In this document: positions 1 through 43,420 of the stretch, piece by piece
How positions within the stretch are numbered: position 1 is the first letter of the stretch
Layout of the letters: the number at the start of each line of letters is the position of its first letter
Sequence record: PZ445411.1
Length of the DNA: 51,129 bases
Strand: one strand, 5' to 3'
Source of the DNA: a phage
Notes under the pieces: model-generated
What the model was told of the DNA's origin: nothing
Database searches by the model: none
Seen by the model: only the letters and a program-made list of their open reading frames with translations
Made by a program: the position numbers and the translations under genes

Positions 1-1569
1 ATGCTGATTTGGGAAGACTTAACAGCGGCGCAAAAACGCGCCGTTAAGGAAATGAGCGAATATTCATTCGAAAAGATGATCCGCATTTGGTTTCAACTTC
101 TCCAGGGGCAAAGGTTCTTAGGAAACTGGCATTTCAGTTACCTATGCAGCGAAGTTGAAAAAATCATCAAAGGCGAGTCACAGAATGTAATTTTCAACAT
201 AACGCCAGGCAGTGGTAAAACAGAGATATTCTCGATCCACATGTCACCTTATGCGTCATTGAAAAGTAAGAAGGTGCGAAATCTTAATCTTTCGTTTAGT
301 GATGGCCTTGTCCAGCAGAATAGCAACCGAATTAAGGAGATTATTGGTTCTCCAGAATGGCAGGAGCTATGGCCTGGAAAGCTGGTAAAGGCGAGCGCAA
401 AGGATTTGATTGTAACCGATGGCGGAAAGGTTAAATTGCAAGTTAACTCGCGTTCTATCGGTGGTCAGGTTACTGGTCTGCGTGGCGGCTACATGGACGA
501 TGGATTTACTGGTATGCTGGTTCTTGACGATCCAGACAAGCCGGATGATATGTTTTCTAAGGTGAAGCGCGAAGCCGGACACATGCGCCTAAAGAACACG
601 GTGCGATCACGTCGAATGAAGGACACCACGCCAATTGTGATGGTTCAGCAGCGTCTACACGTCAATGATTCAACATGGTTCATGACAAACGGCGGCATGG
701 GCGGCATCCAGTTTAAAGTGGTTAGTATTCCGGCGCTCGTTACCAAGGAATATCGCGAAACGCTTCCTGATTGGTTAAAGCCTGAGTTTGATCGCGATGT
801 TTTGTCCAGTAAGCCAGTGATGATTGATGGCGTTGCTCATTATTCATTCTGGCCTGCTAAGGAAAGCGCGGAGGAATTACTTGCACTTCGAAATGCTGAT
901 CCGTACACGTTCGCTAGTCAGTATCAGCAACAGCCTGTTGCGCTTGGCGGCAACGTGTTTAAAACAGAGTGGTTCCAGTATTACGGCAGCAGCGAGAAAT
1001 GCACGCTACCAAAACCGGATCGCTTTGAATATACATTTATCACGGTTGATACCGCGCAGAAAACAGGTGAGCTTAACGACTACTCCGTGATCTGTTATTG
1101 GGGGATGTATAAAGATCGCGTTTACTTCATTGATGGTGTTCGCGGAAAATGGGAAGCGCCTGACCTTGAGACGAATTTTGTTGCATTTGTTAATCAGTGC
1201 TGGAAGCGCAATAAAGAATGCGGAACGTTGCGAAGGATTCATGTTGAAGATAAATCATCTGGCACTGGTTTGATTCAGAGTGCAGCGAAAAAAATCATGA
1301 TCAAGATCAATCCCGTTCAGCGCGATAAAGACAAGGTTACTCGTGCAATGGACGCAGCGCCAGTAATACGAGCCGGACGAGTTGCACTTCCAGAATCGCA
1401 CCCTATGCTGGCTGAGATACTGGCTGAAGTTGCGGCGTTCACATTCGATGATTCGCATCCTCATGATGATATTGTTGATAACATCATTGATGCGGTTAAC
1501 ATTGAAATGAACATGGCAGATGATCCGGTAGGAAGAATGAAAAAATTGGCAGGTTTGCGGAACAAATAG
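1..1569 (+). CDS. terminase large subunit
   Basis: 522-aa ORF directly upstream of the portal gene; P-loop-like GSGKTE near N-terminus; its ATG at nt 1 overlaps the TA|A stop of the small-terminase ORF across the window junction. Confidence 0.75.
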   Translation: MLIWEDLTAAQKRAVKEMSEYSFEKMIRIWFQLLQGQRFLGNWHFSYLCSEVEKIIKGESQNVIFNITPGSGKTEIFSIHMSPYASLKSKKVRNLNLSFSDGLVQQNSNRIKEIIGSPEWQELWPGKLVKASAKDLIVTDGGKVKLQVNSRSIGGQVTGLRGGYMDDGFTGMLVLDDPDKPDDMFSKVKREAGHMRLKNTVRSRRMKDTTPIVMVQQRLHVNDSTWFMTNGGMGGIQFKVVSIPALVTKEYRETLPDWLKPEFDRDVLSSKPVMIDGVAHYSFWPAKESAEELLALRNADPYTFASQYQQQPVALGGNVFKTEWFQYYGSSEKCTLPKPDRFEYTFITVDTAQKTGELNDYSVICYWGMYKDRVYFIDGVRGKWEAPDLETNFVAFVNQCWKRNKECGTLRRIHVEDKSSGTGLIQSAAKKIMIKINPVQRDKDKVTRAMDAAPVIRAGRVALPESHPMLAEILAEVAAFTFDDSHPHDDIVDNIIDAVNIEMNMADDPVGRMKKLAGLRNK

Positions 1570-1596
1570 CACGAATCGACAAACCAATATATAATC

Positions 1597-5369: not shown

Positions 5370-5804
5370 ATGAGTGATTATTCAGTCATTGTTGGCGCTG
5401 AGTCGCCAGGGTGCATGGTCGATTCTTCAATAATGGTGATTAACGGATCTTTCGTGTGCGGAGATGAATTTATTGAGCCAGGTAAGATTGTGCGACTATC
5501 ACATATAACAAATGGATACAAAATAGCAAGTGTTAATGGGGATCTCGTTATTGGTGTGGCAGTAAGGCCGCCGGACTCGTGCATATATGAGGAGGGTGAT
5601 CCCGTTAATGTAGTTAGTAGAGGTAGTGTGTGGTGCTTAACTTCTGAGAGCGAAGCGCCAGAATATGGAGATAAAGTATTTGTAACGCAAGATGGAGATG
5701 CGACATACAGTGAAGGTGACTTACTGATTGGTTGGATCTTTACTGGCGAACATGTAAAGGTTGATCATGATTCATATATTGTCGGGGTAAGCATTAACGC
5801 ATAA
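5370..5804 (+). CDS. capsid-associated protein, paralog 2
   Basis: 144 aa; alignable by eye to ORF 4812-5324 (VSRGSVWCLTSESEAPEYGDKV vs MTEGRVWMLAKDASAPAFGTTI). Confidence 0.35.
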   Translation: MSDYSVIVGAESPGCMVDSSIMVINGSFVCGDEFIEPGKIVRLSHITNGYKIASVNGDLVIGVAVRPPDSCIYEEGDPVNVVSRGSVWCLTSESEAPEYGDKVFVTQDGDATYSEGDLLIGWIFTGEHVKVDHDSYIVGVSINA

Positions 5805-5887
5805 CACAAAATTATGTTGCACGTTTAACAAAAAATGCTATCATTGTGGCGTTACATACTAACAGCCTTTATATATGGAGGAAGAAA

Positions 5888-6862
5888 ATGGAAAAAGAAA
5901 AATTTGATCAGCTAGATGCGGATATTGTTTCTAGCTATCTGGCTACTCGCGGAGTTAAGGGTGATGCGTCCGATATGGGCATCTGGACGGCGCAAGAGCT
6001 TCACAAGATCCGCTCAACTGCTTACGAGAAAGAATATCCGGCAGGTTCGGCGCTTCGTGTGTTCCCTGTAACTAATGAGCTTTCTGATACTGATAAAACT
6101 TTTGAATACCAGATGTTTGATAAGGTTGGTTACGCAAAAATTATTGCTGATTACACCGATGACCTGCCGACCGTTGACGCGCTGATGTCTAGCGAATTCG
6201 GTAAAGTGTTCCGCCTGGGTAACGCGTTCTTGATCTCCATTGACGAAATCAAGGCTGGTCAGCGCACTGGTAAGAGCCTTTCCACTCGCAAGGCAAACGC
6301 AGCGCAAAACGCGCATGATCAAGAAGTTAACCGCTTGGTGTTTAAGGGTTCAAAACCGCATAAGATTCTTTCGGTGTTTGAACATCCTAACCTGACAAAG
6401 ATCGTGTCAACTGGCTGGTTAAGTGCTGATGAAAACACCAAGTTCCCACAGGCGGCATCTGATGAACTGGAAAAGGCTATTGAAACCATTCAGACCATCA
6501 CCAATGGTCAGCACCGAGCAACCAACATCCTGATTCCGCCGTCTATGCGCAAGGTCCTTTCCGTTCGAATGGAAAACACCACTGAAAGTTATCTGGAATA
6601 CTTCCAGAAACAAAACAGCGGAATCACTATCGACTCAATCGCAGAGCTTGAGGATATTGATGGCACTGGAACGAAAGGTTGCCTGGTATATGAGAAAGAC
6701 CCGATGAACATGTCGATCGAAATTCCAGAAGCATTTAATATGCTTCCGGCGCAACCAAAAGATCTGCATTTCAAAGTTCCGTGTACTTCAAAATGTACTG
6801 GCCTGACGATTTACCGTCCGTTTACGCTAGTTCTTATTACTGGCTTGAAAAAATCAGGTTAA
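5888..6862 (+). CDS. major capsid protein
   Basis: 324 aa; strong RBS GGAGGAAGAAA-ATG at 5888 (the ORF-track start 5846 lacks an RBS); flanked by terminators; position between scaffold-like and head-tail joining genes. Confidence 0.55.
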   Translation: MEKEKFDQLDADIVSSYLATRGVKGDASDMGIWTAQELHKIRSTAYEKEYPAGSALRVFPVTNELSDTDKTFEYQMFDKVGYAKIIADYTDDLPTVDALMSSEFGKVFRLGNAFLISIDEIKAGQRTGKSLSTRKANAAQNAHDQEVNRLVFKGSKPHKILSVFEHPNLTKIVSTGWLSADENTKFPQAASDELEKAIETIQTITNGQHRATNILIPPSMRKVLSVRMENTTESYLEYFQKQNSGITIDSIAELEDIDGTGTKGCLVYEKDPMNMSIEIPEAFNMLPAQPKDLHFKVPCTSKCTGLTIYRPFTLVLITGLKKSG

Positions 6863-6874
6863 TCGTATAACATT

Positions 6875-6903
6875 GGGGAATCCTTAACTGGATTCCCTTT
6901 TTA
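6875..6903 (+). terminator. rho-independent terminator after major capsid gene
   Basis: GGGAATCC-ttaact-GGATTCCC hairpin then TTTTT. Confidence 0.65.
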
Positions 6904-6917
6904 TTGGAGGTTATGAA

Positions 6918-7190
6918 ATGGCTAAAGAAAAAACTGTAACGCTAAAGGTTTCCGGCGTGTGCCTTATCATTGTTGATGGTGAGCATTATCATCCAGGCAA
7001 AGAGTTTGACGTAGAAGAATCAAAATTGAAAACAAGCGCGTTTGAATATCTAATTGCAAAAGGCGATCTGGAGGTTAAAGACAACTCCGCATTGAACGAA
7101 GAAATAAAACAGAGCGCAGCAAGCAAACGTAAAAAAGACCCGCGAGAGGGCAAGAGCAAAGCCGAACTTGAAGACGGCGGCATCTATTAA
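6918..7190 (+). CDS. hypothetical small virion-module protein
   Basis: 90 aa, RBS GGAGG; charged C-terminus; between two terminator hairpins. Confidence 0.4.
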   Translation: MAKEKTVTLKVSGVCLIIVDGEHYHPGKEFDVEESKLKTSAFEYLIAKGDLEVKDNSALNEEIKQSAASKRKKDPREGKSKAELEDGGIY

Positions 7191-7237
7191 TAAAGAGGGC
7201 GCTATAAGCGCCCTTTGTCATATCTGGAGGAAACAAA

Positions 7238-7654
7238 ATGGTTGATGAACTTTTCACTGACGCAGAAATCACGCAGCAAATCGTGAAATTAGCTCCACCG
7301 ATGAAACAGATTGATCCAGATTTAATGGTGGCATGGATTGACCTGGCAAAGGGATTTGTTTGCAAGAAGCGGTTTAAAGAATCATATCCTAAAGCGGTTG
7401 CCCTTTATACTTTGCACCTTATGACGCTTGACGGAGCTATGAAGCAAGAAGGGGAAAGCGTAGAGAGTTACTCACGGCGCGTGGCGTCATTTTCCCTGAC
7501 TGGTGAATTTAGCCAGACATTTGATCGAGTGTCCGGCGATTCAAGCGGAAAAGAGATTAGACAAACTCCGTGGGGCAAAATGTATGAGACGTTAAATAGA
7601 AAAAAAGGCGGTGGATTTGGCCTTGTGACTGGATTTCGGAGGCGCTGCAAATGA
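7238..7654 (+). CDS. head-tail connector/adaptor candidate
   Basis: 138 aa, RBS GGAGG; first gene of a 4-gene overlapping set between capsid and major tail genes. Confidence 0.4.
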
Positions 7655-8022
7655 ACTATAACGAGATCGCAAGAATGGCAACCGAAGGAATTAACTTCTT
7701 TAGTGATGGCAACGGTGAGTTTAAGTGCATAACGCAGCGTGGAAGCGTTGAAATCATCGGGGGCGAAGAAGTAGAAAAGCCAGAGATTAGTGTAATGATT
7801 AATGGTTTAATTAGATCACCCAAAGTCCGAGAGGTTGACGGCGAGACAATACGAGTAACCGATAAGTTGGGAGTTTTTAACAATAAAGTTGAAATTAAGA
7901 ACGGGTATCATATTGATGTTGATGGTGAATTATATGTTGTAGTTGAAGCAAGACCAATCAGACAAACCAATGTCACTGTTGCTTATCGGCCTATTTTGAG
8001 AAGGATTTCTGTACATGGCTAA
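7651..8022 (+). CDS. head-tail joining protein candidate
   Basis: 123 aa; start overlaps upstream stop (ATGA); synteny. Confidence 0.4.
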
Positions 8023-8458
8023 AAACTACACGATAAGGGAATTTCACGGCAACATTGATGCGTGGATAAACGCCGTTGATAGTGGATTAAAAGATTGCGT
8101 GGAGTTGTTCGCCGAAAAAGTACACACAGATTTGGTTAAGCGTTCTCCGGTAGATACTGGTCGTTACCGTGGAAACTGGCAGGTAACAGCAAATAAGCCG
8201 CCACTGTATGCGCTTAATCAGTACGATAAGCACGGAGACAAAACGATCGCGGAAGGAAAACGTGCCATATACGCAATATTACGAGGTGGCGGCGCAGTAA
8301 GAGCTATTTATTTTTCTAACATGCTTATTTATGCTAACGCGCTTGAGTACGGTCATTCAAAACAAGCGCCAGCGGGTGTGCTTGGTATTGTTGCCGTGAA
8401 ATTGCGTTCATATATGGCTGAGGCAATAAAAGAGTCGAGGGCAAAAAATGCACTATGA
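8015..8458 (+). CDS. tail completion / head-tail joining protein candidate
   Basis: 147 aa; overlapping start; synteny upstream of major tail protein. Confidence 0.4.
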   Translation: MAKNYTIREFHGNIDAWINAVDSGLKDCVELFAEKVHTDLVKRSPVDTGRYRGNWQVTANKPPLYALNQYDKHGDKTIAEGKRAIYAILRGGGAVRAIYFSNMLIYANALEYGHSKQAPAGVLGIVAVKLRSYMAEAIKESRAKNAL

Positions 8459-8846
8459 ATTAATGCTATCGGCGCGTAAGGCGCTGGCGACTGAATACGA
8501 AAGCAGATTCATGATCGCTTATGAAAACGTAGAGTTTACGCCACCTGGTGACGGTTCGCCGTGGTTGAAGTTTGACTATGCCGAAGTTGACACAGAATAC
8601 TTGTCATTGGATCGAAAATGCGTTTCTTATATCGGAATGATTCAGATTGGCATTGTGTTTCCACCAGGTTACGGAACTGACAGGCCGCGCGTTCTCGCTA
8701 AAGAGATTGCGCAATTCTTTTACGATGGTAAAATGCTGGAGCATGGTTATATATATGAGGGTGCAAGAGTTCACAAACCGCTCAAGAGTGAAAGCGGATG
8801 GCTTCTCCCTATAAGGTTTTATGTTCGAATTGAAACAAAGGAGTAA
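8448..8846 (+). CDS. tail terminator-like protein candidate
   Basis: 132 aa; RBS GAGGG; immediately upstream of major tail protein gene. Confidence 0.35.
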   Translation: MHYELMLSARKALATEYESRFMIAYENVEFTPPGDGSPWLKFDYAEVDTEYLSLDRKCVSYIGMIQIGIVFPPGYGTDRPRVLAKEIAQFFYDGKMLEHGYIYEGARVHKPLKSESGWLLPIRFYVRIETKE

Positions 8847-8851
8847 AAATT

Positions 8852-9514
8852 ATGCATTTACCAAATGGATCGCAAATTTTCGTTGAGAGCAATCGCGGAA
8901 GCGAAATCCAAGCAACAGCAGTGTCAAACGCTAAAGATCCTGTATTCACAGTTGCATCTGGTGGCACTGCGTACAAGAAAGGTGATTATGTGATCATCAC
9001 TGCGTCTTCTTGGGGTAAGCTGATTGATCGTGTTATGCGTGTAAAGACTAACGGTGAAGAAACAAGCGTAACTCTTGAAGGTATTGACACTACTGATCAG
9101 AACGTTTTTCCGTCTGGCGGTACTGCATCTTTTGCCAAAATTGATGCATGGACTGAGATCCCTTGCGTTCAAGATTTGTCTCAGGACGGCGGCGAACAGC
9201 AATACTACACTTATCAGTGTTTGGCAGACGACCAGGAGCAGCAGTTACCTACCTATAAGAGCGCGGTTTCTCTGACATACACTTTTGCTCACGAATACGA
9301 TAACGCGATCTATCCGTTACTTCGTGCAGCAGATGAGTCAGGCGCTGTAACGGCGCTTCGAATGTATGTTCCGAAAGCAAAAGAGATGCGTTGCTGGGCT
9401 GGTGTCCTTTCGTTTAACGAAATCCCGCAGACTACCGTTAACGAAATGGAAACTGTTTCCCTGTCTGTATCACTGAAAGGTCGATTCACCTTCCTACCTT
9501 CTCAAGTAGAGTAA
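8852..9514 (+). CDS. major tail protein
   Basis: 220 aa, RBS AAAGGAG; directly upstream of G/GT chaperone and tape measure; followed by a strong terminator. Confidence 0.55.
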   Translation: MHLPNGSQIFVESNRGSEIQATAVSNAKDPVFTVASGGTAYKKGDYVIITASSWGKLIDRVMRVKTNGEETSVTLEGIDTTDQNVFPSGGTASFAKIDAWTEIPCVQDLSQDGGEQQYYTYQCLADDQEQQLPTYKSAVSLTYTFAHEYDNAIYPLLRAADESGAVTALRMYVPKAKEMRCWAGVLSFNEIPQTTVNEMETVSLSVSLKGRFTFLPSQVE

Positions 9515-9518
9515 TAAC

Positions 9519-9543
9519 AAGGGGCGTTGCGCCCCTTTTTTTG
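9519..9543 (+). terminator. rho-independent terminator after major tail gene
   Basis: GGGGCG-ttg-CGCCCC hairpin then T7. Confidence 0.75.
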
Positions 9544-9584
9544 TTACTGTACAATCATGCTACACGATTCATAATCAATTCTTT

Positions 9585-9599
9585 TAGCAAAAAGTGCTA
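9585..9599. promoter_or_regulatory. palindromic box variant in the 5' leader of the tail chaperone / tape measure operon
   Basis: TAGCA-AAAAG-TGCTA perfect inverted repeat between CATAAT (9570-9575) and the RBS of gene 9614; TTGTTA at 9541-9546 lies 23 nt upstream of CATAAT. Confidence 0.35.
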
Positions 9600-9613
9600 T
9601 CAAGGAGAAAGAA

Positions 9614-15474: not shown

Positions 15475-15518
15475 CCCGTATAATTCAACAAATAAAATAG
15501 CACAAAAGGTGAAAAAGC

Positions 15519-20304: not shown

Positions 20305-20415
20305 TTCTGTTCCTTTTGTTCTCCGGTGTTCTCAAATCTGCGGAGGCTTAAATTTAGCTCAAAAAGTGAACAGTAATAGAGCGCTATACATACGAATAAA
20401 TATATATACATACAT

Positions 20416-20455
20416 ATAAATCAATAAGTTAGTGGTATATATATTTATATTTGTT
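20416..20455. repeat. conserved AT-rich segment, copy A (partner at 42248-42288)
   Basis: ATAAATCAATAAGTTAGTGGTATATATATTTATATTTGTT; about 90% identical to copy B; followed by GT-rich degenerate repeats to about 20540. Confidence 0.6.
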
Positions 20456-20675
20456 TTTTCTTGTTATCTATGTTTTGTGTGATTTTGTGTGTCTGGTGAT
20501 TTTTATGTGGTTGTGTATGTGTCAGTGTTTGTGTGCGTCTATATATCTATATCCGTCGCAAATGTAGGAACAAGAGAACAAAAAGACAACAAAGATATTT
20601 ATCAATCACTTACATGTAAATTTTGTTATCCGATTCGTCAGGAACGTTGTTAGAACAGAAAAAACAAAATAACTG

Positions 20676-20703
20676 TTGACTAAACGCATTAAATAGCTAA
20701 AAT
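20676..20703 (+). promoter_or_regulatory. sigma70-like promoter for the rightward recombination module
   Basis: TTGACT (20676-20681), 16-nt spacer, TAAAAT (20698-20703); 30 nt upstream of the exonuclease ATG. Confidence 0.5.
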
Positions 20704-20732
20704 GCAGGTATACCAACTAATGAGGGCAAATC

Positions 20733-21794
20733 ATGAATAAGTTTATGGCGTACACCAGCGAAGAAATGAGCAACGAGCTTTATCACGATCCAGAAGCGTG
20801 GACTGCTGATTATGTTAGCGGATCAAGCTTGGCAGAGATTTACAGCACATGCCCGGCAGCGTGGAAGTTCAAGCCGCGTGACGATAAGAGCAAGGCGCTA
20901 GTTTTTGGTACGCAGTCGCATACCAACTTTGAAAGCAAGGAGCTTTTCGAAAAAACATATCGCCGTGCGCCAGCGCCAGAAGACTTTAAGGATCTGATAA
21001 CCAGCCAAACGGCGCTTGCTGCAAAGCTGAAATCATTTGGCCTGAAAGGTACAACAGGAAAGACTTATCCAGACCTTATCAAAATGATGGTGGATTGCGG
21101 AGAAGACCTTAACGTTATGTGGTTGATTGAGATGATCGCAGAAAGTCAGGCCAGGGCAGATGGAGTTCAGTTAATCGAAGCCAAAGATTACGATGCGTGC
21201 GAGGCAATGCGCCAGGTTCTTGAATCAATACCTGAACATAACGCATGTATGAATAGCAAGACAGCACAACGTGAATTATCGCTGTTCGGTGAAATTAACG
21301 GCGTAAAAGTCAAGGTTCGATGCGATCACGTTGACGTAACAAAGAACGTCACCGCAACCCTGATTGATGGTTACGATGAAAAAGGTCAGCCGATTTGTCG
21401 AGATATTATTTATCCAGAGGCTATTGTGATCACTGACTACAAAACAACAATGAGCGCCAATCCGGTTGAGTTTATGCGCTTGGCTTACAATCACGGCTAT
21501 TATTTAAAAATGGCGTTGCAATGTGATTTATTTAGGAAAGCGTATCCAGAAGAAAAGCGACCTATAGTTGTGCGACTGTTAGCGCAAGAGAAGAAAGAGC
21601 CTTATTTGCCGTTGGCTTTCCGCATGAATAGCGAGCAGTTGAAGATCGGGCGCATTCAGTACATGAGCGTGATTAACCAGTTTGCCATGTGCCAGCAACA
21701 TGACGTTTGGCCTTCGTATTCAAACGGTGAGCCTGAGGTTTGCCTTGATACTCCTGATTGGGTGCGCCGCCAGTTTAAGCAATATCTTATTTAA
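20733..21794 (+). CDS. PD-(D/E)XK recombination exonuclease
   Basis: 353 aa; motifs RCDHVD and ITDYKT fit a PD-(D/E)xK nuclease; upstream of Erf-like and SSB genes. Confidence 0.55.
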   Translation: MNKFMAYTSEEMSNELYHDPEAWTADYVSGSSLAEIYSTCPAAWKFKPRDDKSKALVFGTQSHTNFESKELFEKTYRRAPAPEDFKDLITSQTALAAKLKSFGLKGTTGKTYPDLIKMMVDCGEDLNVMWLIEMIAESQARADGVQLIEAKDYDACEAMRQVLESIPEHNACMNSKTAQRELSLFGEINGVKVKVRCDHVDVTKNVTATLIDGYDEKGQPICRDIIYPEAIVITDYKTTMSANPVEFMRLAYNHGYYLKMALQCDLFRKAYPEEKRPIVVRLLAQEKKEPYLPLAFRMNSEQLKIGRIQYMSVINQFAMCQQHDVWPSYSNGEPEVCLDTPDWVRRQFKQYLI

Positions 21795-28629: not shown

Positions 28630-28682
28630 ATACACCTCAAACAAAAAAGCCTGACAGATGATAACATCATGCCAGGCATTGT

Positions 28683-28702
28683 TTTTAGCAATTAGTGCTT
28701 TC
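28683..28702 (-). promoter_or_regulatory. conserved box variant overlapping the HTH gene stop, followed by hairpin and T-run (terminator-like)
   Basis: Minus strand AGCACTAATTGCTAAAAAC, then imperfect hairpin GCCTGGCA...TGTCAGGC and TTTTTTG before the primase-like gene. Confidence 0.35.
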
Positions 28703-29158
28703 AGGTTTATACAGGAATCCGCCAGGTTCATAATCTGACATTCTTACCACTCGCAACATTTCACGCTTATCACATCTCTTTGTGAGCGGTTTTCCATTGG
28801 AATCAAATCGCAGATCTGGACGGCAGAATGAAGCGCGATAGCCTTGACAGCCATACTTTTTGTAATCGTTATGCACCTTTTGAGCGCCAGCGGCTGAAAT
28901 CATACCGCGAACGCGCCACTGATTTACAGTTTGCTGGCTAACGTTAAGACGCTTTGCCATTGCTGACACGCTGCCGTAATACTCAATAAGAATGTCAAGC
29001 CGTGCTTTTAGTCCGGCGCGCACCTCATCTTTTAGAACATAATAACCTGTCGGTCGCTTGCGCTTCTTCTTGTCCTTGCCTCGTCTTGTTCCGTTATTGC
29101 CATTAATTGTGCGCTTGTCAATCTTGCCTGTTGATACCGCGATTCGTTGCTCTTTCAT
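28685..29158 (-). CDS. HTH DNA-binding protein (putative transcriptional regulator)
   Basis: 157 aa; RBS GGAG; helix-turn-helix-like SAMAKRLNVSQQTVNQW; very basic N-terminus; sits at a divergent promoter region. Confidence 0.55.
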   Translation of the reverse strand: MKEQRIAVSTGKIDKRTINGNNGTRRGKDKKKRKRPTGYYVLKDEVRAGLKARLDILIEYYGSVSAMAKRLNVSQQTVNQWRVRGMISAAGAQKVHNDYKKYGCQGYRASFCRPDLRFDSNGKPLTKRCDKREMLRVVRMSDYEPGGFLYKPESTNC

Positions 29159-29172
29159 TATTCATTCTCCAA

Positions 29173-29214
29173 TAGCATTTTTTGTTAAACGATGATTTAA
29201 TGATTGTGTATTAT
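29173..29214 (+). promoter_or_regulatory. conserved box + -10-like hexamer (promoter-like cassette) upstream of helicase gene
   Basis: TAGCATTTTTTGTTAAAC, 21 nt, TATTAT (29209-29214); in divergent intergenic region. Confidence 0.45.
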
Positions 29215-29247
29215 ACACGCCAAATGGCATTACTCAAAGGTTTTAGA

Positions 29248-40302: not shown

Positions 40303-40496
40303 TACACAACCTCCATAAAAGTATTGAATCCACGCAGTTTGAAAGCATTGCCATGTTTAACAACGTTCCATGTCAGGCCGGAGTGATACGCAACCATATC
40401 CTCAAGATCAATTGTGATGATAGCGCCTTTCTTAAAGATTCCTTTCTCGTGAGTGGTGTCACGCTGTACAACTTTAACGTCAACCTGTGTTTCCAT
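40302..40496 (-). CDS. hypothetical protein
   Basis: 64 aa; weak RBS AGGAT; preceded by a box and -10-like hexamer. Confidence 0.45.
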   Translation of the reverse strand: METQVDVKVVQRDTTHEKGIFKKGAIITIDLEDMVAYHSGLTWNVVKHGNAFKLRGFNTFMEVV

Positions 40497-41000: not shown

Positions 41001-41033
41001 TTTCAAATCCTCGCATTCGTTATCGATGTGTGT

Positions 41034-42210: not shown

Positions 42211-42247
42211 CAACAAAAAGAACAAAATAAAATTTATATATATACCC

Positions 42248-42288
42248 ATAAAATCAATAAGTTAGTTATATATGTATTTATATTTGTT
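42248..42288. repeat. conserved AT-rich segment, copy B (partner at 20416-20455)
   Basis: ATAAAATCAATAAGTTAGTTATATATGTATTTATATTTGTT; followed by GT-rich degenerate repeats to about 42420. Confidence 0.6.
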
Positions 42289-42544
42289 ATTTACTGTTGA
42301 GCTTGTTCTATGGGTATATGGTGGTGTGGTATTGTTTGTGGTGATATGTATGTGTGATTGTATATTTTTTAATCAATGGTGATGTGTGGTGATTTTTGTA
42401 TGTATATATATGGGTATGGAGCAATCCTCCGTCAACCAAGTAAACAATGTCATTTTTAACAGAAAAACCAATGACTTAACTGAAGCATTTTGTTATCTTT
42501 AAACGCGCCACGTGCCAAAAATTGTTATTAAAACACAAAATATA

Positions 42545-42574
42545 TTGACATGTAGGAAAGGCAAGGCAATAATG
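42545..42574 (+). promoter_or_regulatory. strong sigma70-like early promoter for the rightward small-gene block
   Basis: Consensus -35 TTGACA (42545-42550), 17-18 nt spacer, -10 ATAAT around 42568-42574; 36 nt upstream of ATG 42610. Confidence 0.55.
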
Positions 42575-42609
42575 CATCCAGTTCAAACGCAACAAAAGGA
42601 GTAGACGCC

Positions 42610-43095
42610 ATGAATGAAGAAAATGTTAGTTCTATGTCGCGTAGTGAGTTCTGCGATATGCTTCGCAGCCTGGGCGCGGCAATTGGTAGCGGCGAGCGTA
42701 ACAATGTATTCATGCCAGCACTTTTCTTGTGCGCTAACGTGGAGAACGGCGACGCAATTACAGCATCGTACATGCGCCAGGTGGTAAACCGTGTGCCAGA
42801 AGTAAAGCAAAAAGGCGTGATCAGCATTAAGCGAAAGGTGACTGATGAGGGTGATGGCTTTGTGTTTACGCTCACTGAAGCCAAAAGCAAGCCTCGCGTT
42901 CTGACTGGTGAAGAAATCGACGAGATCGCAGAAAAGCGCGCAGAGAAGGCGGTAAGCAAAATTCTTAATCACCTGGTAAACGTAATGCCAAATATCACAG
43001 ACATGGAAGGCGACAAACTTGCTGGAGCGTGTGAGGCTATCGGGCGCTACCAGGATATGATTCGTAAACTCGCTGGAGGAAAAGAGGATGAATAA
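42610..43095 (+). CDS. hypothetical protein (first rightward early gene)
   Basis: 161 aa; RBS AAAGGAG; 36 nt downstream of a near-consensus promoter. Confidence 0.55.
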   Translation: MNEENVSSMSRSEFCDMLRSLGAAIGSGERNNVFMPALFLCANVENGDAITASYMRQVVNRVPEVKQKGVISIKRKVTDEGDGFVFTLTEAKSKPRVLTGEEIDEIAEKRAEKAVSKILNHLVNVMPNITDMEGDKLAGACEAIGRYQDMIRKLAGGKEDE

Positions 43096-43348: not shown

Positions 43349-43388
43349 CACTTTTTGTTAAAACGCCAGGCGCAAAGCCTGGCATAAT
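43346..43388 (+). promoter_or_regulatory. conserved box + hairpin + CATAAT cassette
   Basis: TAGCACTTTTTGTTAAAAC (TAG is the lipoprotein stop), hairpin GCCAGGCGCAAAGCCTGGC, CATAAT at 43383-43388. Confidence 0.5.
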
Positions 43389-43420
43389 AGCCTCATCGAA
43401 ACGAGATTGAGGAAAACAAA

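Follow-up and report, generated by a model that had tools for sequence, protein, structure and literature searches.

The 51,129-nucleotide (nt) stretch of DNA analysed here (sequence record PZ445411.1; hereafter the window) is all or nearly all of the genome of a T1-like siphovirus of the Hanrivervirus type (Drexlerviridae, Tempevirinae), and a short box, TAGCACTTTTTGTTAAAAC, recurs in it both within promoter cassettes and, in other arrangements, among the late genes. We propose that the box is a dual-role operator that would activate the delayed-early cassettes and hold down late genes at the capsid and tail-chaperone promoters, a reading to which we assign a probability of roughly 0.55. What is shown directly is sequence, statistics, geometry, conservation and co-occurrence; from these we infer that a protein binds the box, whether it activates or represses, and where and when transcripts start. 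An initial annotation of the window had noticed reversed, palindromic and degenerate copies of the box in the late region and suggested an operator-like site; the three sequences that it reported are all present where it placed them, and a regulatory, operator-like role remains the best fit, but its promoter assignment and its view of how the copies are placed need revision.

Over 7 kb the window is 96-97.5% identical to Escherichia phages phiE31-2 and KarlJaspers/Bas06 and to Shigella phage pSf-1. The core of its box is an imperfect inverted repeat, TAGCA-N5-TG(C/T)TA, followed by an A-rich 3' flank. Dinucleotide-preserving shuffles predict 0.25 such cores, whereas the window has 16 at distinct places; with up to two mismatches to the 19-mer consensus ATAGCACNNNTTGYTAAAA there are 19 sites, against about 0.1 per shuffled genome. 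Searched in full against Rfam, the window yielded no known RNA family. The box belongs to the same sequence family as a 21-nt direct repeat, aaATAGCACnnnTTGnTAAAA, reported in the 2024 re-annotation of phage TLS, where it has 18 intergenic copies and comparable repeats in T1, Rtp and Rogue1, and where three guesses were offered for it (stoperator, enhancer site or UP element) and its function was posed as an open question (PMC11447400). The text of that paper has the repeats run with transcription and places them about 76 nt ahead of start codons, whereas both strong late copies in the window are reversed and depart from that pattern. Measured against the 16 specified positions of the TLS repeat, the copy in the tail-chaperone leader (9581-9600) has no mismatches, the one before the capsid gene (5822-5841) has two, and one behind the large terminase gene, terL (1566-1585), has four. 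The capsid copy is orthologous to TLS repeat DR7, which is on the negative strand in the table of PMC11447400 although its text has all repeats following transcription; neither the reversal of DR7 nor its position inside a promoter spacer is remarked upon, and the repeats are tied neither to a regulator gene nor to a fixed spacing from a -10 element. TLS, unlike the window, has no copy of the box before the tail-chaperone gene. The box family is thus already published, and the late-region geometries described here vary familiar phage regulatory logic.

Late-region copies of the box

The position of the capsid copy in the spacer of a predicted promoter, which the initial annotation missed, makes a stronger case for an operator than does the site at 9585. 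A reverse-oriented box had been placed at 5823-5840, just upstream of the major capsid gene, and this is confirmed: the minus-strand core (TAGCATTTTTTGTTA, 5826-5840) is an exact match to TAGCA-N5-TGYTA with two mismatches to the 19-mer, and the palindrome ends 48 nt before the capsid ATG (5888). Read along the plus strand, ACAAAAT is followed by TTGCAC, GTTTAACAAAAAATGC and TATCAT, such that the reversed box forms the 16-nt spacer, lies over the core promoter, and contributes the TG and the first TA of an extended -10 from its half-site TGCTA (Table 1). We read this arrangement as a genuine, fairly strong sigma70 promoter with a putative operator in its spacer, that is, as repressor geometry, and the spacing predicts a transcript starting at about 5851 on the plus strand. 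At -43 to -39 an A-tract resembles the proximal subsite of a UP element and may act as one.

To place this arrangement among relatives we used 80 loci recovered from IMG/VR with a capsid-protein profile; this and all later conservation counts are raw, with phylogeny not factored in. About 70 of the 80 carry the reversed box 59-78 nt before the capsid gene, and they span Hanriver-, Warwick-, Tls-, Tuna-, Nouzilly- and Webervirus as well as the unclassified K50 Klebsiella phages; DTL (Loudonvirus) and Rogue1 have plain boxless promoters at this position. The T1 promoter reads TTGACG-16-TATTAT. Across 49 distinct sequences of this site the TTG at -34 to -32, the T at -7 and the AAA at -43 to -41 are invariant, columns which all lay outside the pattern used to anchor the alignment, and -40 and -39 are mostly A. 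A subgroup of Webervirus keeps the site with one core change (TGATA), and the Webervirus spacer has an alternative centre of the CGAAT class (TTTAGCGATTCGTGCTAT), indicating that the spacer obeys the grammar of the box beyond the needs of a promoter alone. An antisense cassette promoter at the capsid site was considered and rejected: in the window, T1 and TLS alike, the hexamers found at 18 nt (TATGCG, TATACA and TAGCAC) do not have a T as their sixth base, and they derive from the stop-codon region of the upstream gene.

A leader stem-loop begins 3-4 nt after the capsid -10, with the predicted start inside its 5' arm, and it shows compensatory changes in six of nine pairs across 17 lineages. 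The TLS equivalent has been annotated as terminator T35 (PMC11447400). Its T-run differs between lineages and is missing in two related loci (L059 and L040), and the hairpin itself is missing in Webervirus. A conserved site in a promoter spacer with a covarying hairpin directly after it, often with a T-run, would also suit a loading site for an antiterminator like lambda Q, which would carry RNA polymerase past the hairpin and the late terminators; about ten intrinsic terminators are annotated in the T1 late region, and some hairpin loops hold -10-like hexamers (CATAAT in T1, TATTAT in TLS). However, neither the T-run nor these would-be pause hexamers are conserved, the candidate regulator described below is a Cro-like protein for which no match to the Q family was found, every late module has its own -10-like element so that re-initiation would suffice to explain expression, and transcripts that start within the 5' arm may not form the full hairpin. 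Of a Q-type module, then, a spacer site and a downstream hairpin are present and the Q protein is not found, and we think such a role for the capsid copy very improbable.

The second strong late copy lies in the leader of the tail-chaperone gene, in the reverse orientation. Its core (TAGCAAAAAGTGCTA, 9585-9599) matches TAGCA-N5-TGYTA exactly and ends 15 nt before the tail-chaperone ATG (9614). The initial annotation had singled this core out as a perfect palindromic variant, and perfect it is, although not special, in that most relatives have an imperfect TAACA...TGCTA at the site; the palindromic form is itself common, right halves GCTAAAA and GTTAAAA both being frequent among ordinary copies. 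That this copy is placed differently from those of the early cassettes does not hold. On the minus strand the cassette geometry is exact, with an antisense TAGCAT precisely 18 nt past the box, and the same is true of every box-bearing leader in a comparison of 85 related loci with 72 distinct leaders. The box is present in 34 of these loci, representing 31 distinct leaders of Hanriver-, Warwick- and Tunavirus-like phages, and is always reversed; all 31 leaders have an antisense TAnnnT exactly 18 nt away. Positions 1, 2 and 6 of the antisense hexamer are invariant and positions 3-5 vary (TAGCAT, TAGATT, TATCAT, TAGAGT, TAGGAT, TACGAT, TAAGAT and others), the intervening 18 nt differ widely between leaders, and a TGn often stands directly before the hexamer. 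The other 51 loci, with 41 distinct leaders and including Tlsvirus, Webervirus, Nouzillyvirus, K50, DTL and Rogue1, are boxless, and inspection of about 12 distinct boxless leader types found no minus-strand TAnnnT beside the sense hexamer. Because the antisense hexamer co-occurs with the box and is missing where the box is missing, it is part of the box module and not of the sense promoter.

The sense promoter is conserved with or without the box: a -10-like hexamer stands straight after the terminator T-run in all 72 distinct leaders (TAAAAT, TAATAT, CATAAT or TATAAT in the boxless ones), and the Rogue1 equivalent of the window's TACAAT (P_tac) is annotated as an extended -10 promoter. The initial annotation had instead named a CATAAT hexamer (9570-9575), with late transcripts possibly starting near 9576-9584. 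That start is not conserved in T1, SH2 or Jahat; the hexamer is missing in these and in the related locus L014, and we reject it as the conserved -10, which lies at 9550-9555; from the scan match TGTACA-16-CATAAT it may be a promoter specific to this lineage. The sense TACAAT and the antisense TAGCAT stand face-to-face and only 1 nt apart, so that a polymerase occupying either one should keep a second off its neighbour, and because the terminator behind the major tail protein gene has a terminator-like score on both strands, an antisense RNA of only about 40 nt is expected in the window phage. Judged from its geometry, the copy at 9581-9600 most probably forms an antisense cassette promoter while being at the same time part of the sense leader.

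Interference or antisense RNA lowers the opposing transcript at the cII-dependent paQ promoter of lambda and in coliphage 186 and P2, whose lytic and lysogenic promoters converge. The tail-chaperone arrangement is like these in having a putative activator-dependent or convergent promoter, without a gene of its own, aimed against a late-function transcript. Those systems, however, serve the decisions of temperate phages, whereas the window phage is virulent, as is its family, no integrase or lysogeny module being annotated in the records examined (KarlJaspers, TLS and T1); and with the two -10s only 1 nt apart occlusion is likelier than collision.

A palindrome that is perfect in the window and 2 nt from a Shine-Dalgarno sequence might also act as RNA, folding into a 5-bp hairpin that modulates tail-chaperone translation. 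We rejected this for 9585-9599 because the stem is broken in relatives, most of which, with TAACA...TGCTA, would have an A-C mismatch in it; the distance to the Shine-Dalgarno ranges from 0 to about 11 nt, and conservation tracks the DNA box including its non-pairing flanks, which leaves the RNA reading scarcely credible.

A third late copy, behind terL, is eroded. The initial annotation had described a degenerate copy there, ahead of a TATAAT and a terminator, and it is indeed present as an eroded ortholog of an intact box in relatives. Taken alone it stands at the level of chance, since sites with four mismatches number 8 in the window against 8.65 expected. About 20 related loci, of close and distant relatives, nevertheless have an intact forward box (0-1 mismatch) over the terL stop codon (AAATAGCACGAATTGCTAAAAG), among them L014, with no mismatches there and a capsid protein 99% identical to that of the window. 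In these relatives the box is followed after 4-5 nt by TATAAT or TACAAT and then by a terminator, which puts the core at about -35 to -21 relative to the -10-like element, overlapping the core promoter before the portal gene. The eroded form is shared by the window and three close relatives, and in T1 and TLS the position is boxless. By orthology the window copy is a real relic, and probably non-functional. A further forward box, at 15497-15516, which the initial annotation did not list, is orthologous to TLS repeat DR8; it adjoins the Shine-Dalgarno of a J-like tail-tip gene with no -10 at the cassette spacing, a fourth geometry in the late region. T1 has a comparable box at 8362, adjoining the Shine-Dalgarno of terS.

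Decay behind terL, together with a tail-chaperone module that behaves as an insertion of about 45 nt, present or missing by lineage, raises the possibility that mobile promoter cassettes recombined into intergenic gaps and left the late copies behind as neutral remnants with no late regulatory role. A parallel exists in T4-type phages, where repeated promoter cassettes are reported to mediate module shuffling (PMC2839356). The capsid copy, however, keeps its orientation and register in six named genera and K50 despite diverged flanks, and the antisense -10 bears a signature of selection in 31 distinct leaders (positions 1, 2 and 6 fixed, 3-5 free). We consider neutral persistence improbable.

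Promoter cassettes and a candidate regulator

The ordinary copies of the box are parts of promoter cassettes. When the 59 sites with up to two mismatches in the window, T1 and TLS are pooled, a (T/C)AnnnT hexamer lies 17-19 nt after the box in 52, against a background rate of 10%; TATAGT, CATAAT, TATTAT and TATCAT are frequent. The best match to TTGACA 16-18 nt upstream of the hexamer is mostly 2-3 of 6, and a TGn extension precedes the hexamer in 24 of the 52. The core palindrome therefore spans about -49 to -35, with its centre near -42 and no usable -35 element. The seven strong sites that lack this geometry include the capsid-promoter sites of all three genomes.

A site centred near -42 with a -10 and no usable -35 is the geometry of class II activation, as by CRP and FNR at -41.5 and lambda cI at PRM, and of the middle and late promoters of Mu that depend on Mor and C, small dimeric activators of the helix-turn-helix (HTH) type. 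The cassettes, including the antisense one in the tail-chaperone leader, appear to share with these a dyad near -42/-43 at a fixed distance from a -10 without a -35. The likeness ends there, in that the box is also found inside a promoter spacer and facing another promoter, and no homology to Mor or C was detected. In the box itself the half-sites that contain G or C (TAGCAC and TGC/TGT) are fixed and the centre falls in free classes (TTT, GAA, AAA), which favours a dimeric HTH protein over a UP element; the box looks like the operator of such a protein. Two other assignments were dropped. TTGTTA within the box cannot serve as the -35, since the spacer would be 22 nt, and a likeness to sigma54 promoters (TGGCAC-N5-TTGC against TAGCAC-N5-TTGC) fails because the invariant GG is missing and a sigma70-type -10 stands at a fixed distance.

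The cassettes have additional features. A motif CATCGA(A/C)AACGA occurs in their 5' untranslated regions about 5-20 nt after the -10 (at 43393-43404 and, on the minus strand, 41011-41022 in the window, and in T1 and TLS); it is possibly a signal for translation or RNA stability, and it is missing from the antisense tail-chaperone cassette. Many cassettes have a GC-rich hairpin between box and -10 (43365-43383, and 28640-28682 on the minus strand, in the window). In the primase cassette the -10, TATCAT, lies within the loop of the terminator of the regulator gene (T57 in TLS), so that terminator and promoter overlap.

The most likely binder of the box, judged by context, is a 157-residue Cro/YdaS-like HTH protein encoded by a core gene of the family at 28685-29158 (minus strand) and found in 842 phage records of Drexlerviridae type. 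In KarlJaspers, TLS and T1 no transcription regulator other than its equivalent is annotated, and Pfam scans of 30 early open reading frames (ORFs) found no other DNA-binding domain. The HTH domain (residues 54-91) matches Cro-type structures (PDB 5w8y, E=2e-5; 3bd1, E=3e-4). The Pfam scores fall just below gathering, at 29.8 bits for YdaS_toxin (cutoff 30) and 25.2 for P22_Cro (cutoff 30.2), and among six orthologs all hit YdaS and five hit P22_Cro; no homology to the Mor, C or Q families was detected. A single-sequence AlphaFold model has a mean predicted local distance difference test (pLDDT) score of 48, with a four-helix core at residues 44-101 scoring 56-85. Outside the recognised domain, the N-terminus has a very conserved basic segment, IDKRTxNGNNGTxRGKDKK, and the C-terminal part has several largely conserved cysteines, one of them invariant; neither forms a recognisable domain. 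The last codons of the gene (S-T-N-C-stop) are encoded by a copy of the box.

Boxes bracket the regulator gene in every genome examined. Upstream of it, transcription from P(reg) would cross a reversed box (29191-29172), whose end lies immediately before the Shine-Dalgarno, with the ATG at 29158, and on the plus strand the same box is 17 nt upstream of the -10 of the helicase cassette, which overlaps the -10 of P(reg). The TLS equivalent of this promoter, P57, is among only three sigma70-consensus promoters listed for that phage (PMC11447400). The whole architecture is kept in seven lineages: the window, T1, TLS, phSE-5, K50, NJR15 (Webervirus) and JK06 (Rogunavirus). As read from the sequence, the tail-chaperone leader mirrors the regulator-gene leader, except that its cassette promoter would have no gene to express.

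Whether such a protein would activate or repress may depend on where it sits, as with the cI and Cro operators of lambda and P22 and with phi29 p4, in which one protein activates or represses according to the position of its site. The window system resembles these in its Cro-type HTH, its dyad of about 15 bp, its proposed position-dependent role and its probable autoregulation by way of a site common to it and a divergent promoter. It is unlike lambda and P22 in having about 20 dispersed sites per genome in place of one or two operator clusters, and in the extra N- and C-terminal segments of the regulator.

Table 1. Positions of the features discussed, numbered from the first nucleotide of the window.
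Feature	Position	Strand	Remarks
Eroded forward box ATAGCACGAATCGACAAACC	1566-1585	+	Overlaps terL stop codon; then TATAAT (1590-1595) and terminator (1597-1619)
A-tract ACAAAAT	5806-5812	+	About 40 nt upstream of predicted start; after stop codon of upstream gene (5802-5804)
-35 of capsid promoter (P_mcp), TTGCAC	5817-5822	+	TTG invariant in relatives; TTGACG in T1
Reversed box, 20-mer ATAGCATTTTTTGTTAAACG	5822-5841	-	Core palindrome 5826-5840; in spacer of predicted capsid promoter
Extended -10, TGc-TATCAT	5836-5844	+	Hexamer 5839-5844; TG and first TA from box half-site TGCTA
Capsid leader stem-loop	5848-5876	+	Arms 5848-5854 and 5860-5867; weak T-rich tail
Terminator after major tail protein gene	9519-9546	both	Hairpin 9519-9537; terminator-like score on both strands
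Sense -10-like TACAAT (P_tac)	9550-9555	+	Directly after terminator; predicted start about 9562
Antisense -10, TAGCAT	9557-9562	-	Exactly 18 nt past reversed box; predicted antisense start about 9550
CATAAT of initial annotation	9570-9575	+	Scan match TGTACA-16-CATAAT; this lineage only
Reversed box ATAGCACTTTTTGCTAAAAG	9581-9600	-	No mismatches; in sense leader, 2 nt before Shine-Dalgarno
Forward box	15497-15516	+	Adjoins Shine-Dalgarno and ATG (15519) of J-like tail-tip gene; TLS DR8 ortholog
Gene of candidate box binder	28685-29158	-	157 residues, Cro/YdaS-like HTH; core gene of family
Reference architecture of regulator gene	29172-29237	both	Box 29172-29191; helicase cassette -10 TATTAT 29209-29214 (+)
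P(reg)	29237-29210	-	TTGAGT 29237-29232, 16 nt, TATAAT 29215-29210

A proposed circuit and its alternatives

On the dual-role reading, the Cro-like regulator would be made early from its canonical sigma70 promoter and, bound at -42, would switch on the delayed-early cassette promoters that lack a -35. It would also limit its own synthesis, activating the helicase cassette while sitting in its own leader. In the capsid spacer it would compete with RNA polymerase, such that capsid transcription is held down, and in the tail-chaperone leader antisense initiation activated by the regulator, together with a roadblock of bound protein, would shut the sense promoter of the tail-chaperone and tape-measure genes. 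The late boxes would thus be placed only to hinder: at the capsid promoter, in some lineages at the portal-gene promoter, and at the tail-tip Shine-Dalgarno (15497-15516). Release late in infection could perhaps come by titration on replicated genomes combined with autorepression, which is pure conjecture.

A simpler alternative is that the sites are purely repressive in the manner of stoperators or Cro operators, with promoters shut or elongation blocked at every copy and no activation anywhere. This is among the proposals of the TLS authors (PMC11447400), the candidate regulator is Cro-like, and the late copies are in positions that allow repression only. The stoperators of mycobacteriophage L5 are asymmetric sites of a prophage repressor that run with transcription; the late copies are oriented against it. 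For the cassettes, the rigid spacing between box and -10 (52 of 59) without a -35 points to direct contact with RNA polymerase. A site at -42 also leaves free the elements on which a promoter with no -35 relies, and only 24 of the 52 cassettes have the TGn extension that would allow unaided activity. We consider pure repression unlikely.

The box could instead be read by a component of the host, either as a UP element by the alpha subunit of RNA polymerase or by a conserved enterobacterial transcription factor. It is A/T-rich and upstream of the cassette -10s, and the same box is found in phages of many Enterobacteriaceae; a UP element was also the third idea of the TLS authors (PMC11447400). 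Against a host reader, the best-conserved positions are the half-sites that contain G or C and the centre is free, the signature of a dimeric protein and not of an A-tract, and the phage regulator gene is flanked by boxes in all the genomes examined. A UP element is A/T-rich from -38 to -59 with no specific G or C, a description that the late copies do not fit, and they lie at -29 to -10 and at about +20 to +40, where it cannot act. We give a host reader little credence. We know of no host factor with a site like the box.

A more elaborate scheme would make the Cro-like protein and the box a master timer, which at -42 would switch on some 15-20 promoters lacking a -35 and in the capsid promoter would load onto RNA polymerase, in the style of lambda Q though as an unrelated protein, and travel past the leader hairpin and about ten terminators; we allow this only a slim chance. 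The combination of fixed spacing, conserved orientation and co-occurrence is fitted better by the dual-role operator than by each of its rivals.

Several observations nonetheless weigh against the dual-role operator. A permanently bound repressor would block capsid synthesis, and the release step proposed above is conjectural. The tail-chaperone box is dispensable, being missing from 51 of 85 loci including those of Tlsvirus and Webervirus; the antisense -10s are weak (TAGCAT is a 4/6 match), and the antisense promoter serves no gene. At the window's capsid promoter a generic promoter scan reported nothing, TTGCAC being a weak -35 (3/6), and the post-terL box is decaying in the window's own lineage. 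Residues of the regulator's recognition helix vary by genus (SQQTVNQW, NLKTVWGW, TRQAVEEW) while the box stays the same, and the model of the protein is unreliable outside its HTH domain. Finally, a search of the accessible literature on T1-like phages found no binding, transcript-mapping, time-course RNA-seq or genetic data.

Other observations and significance

Some features of the window lie apart from the box. The stretches 20400-20740 and 42235-42620 share a repeat rich in AT and TG (about 130-330 nt, 77% identity), which lies before a recE-like gene and before the rightward early operon. At the end of the recE-side copy is a canonical sigma70-like promoter (TTGACT...TAAAAT near 20690); the two copies may be immediate-early control regions or origin-related sequence. 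A small early ORF at 40305-40496 (minus strand) matches Pfam PF25180, 'Phage antiviral trigger protein Gp54', with E=1.5e-37. Two GenBank records, MG065681 and MG065638 ('Campylobacter phage A139' and 'A15a'), encode capsid and regulator proteins that are 99.7-100% identical to those of the window; a wrong host label, or else contamination, is the probable explanation.

T1 is a classic T phage, and it orders its early and late expression with the host polymerase alone. The late copies of the box are the most informative in this respect. They present one operator in three geometries (ahead of promoters with no -35, within a complete promoter, and antisense facing a sense promoter) and link that operator to one conserved regulator, whose own gene has the same arrangement. 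The circuit proposed here is concrete and testable, and its compact promoter and operator parts would be portable for the engineering of Drexlerviridae, which are common therapeutic and model phages of E. coli and Klebsiella.

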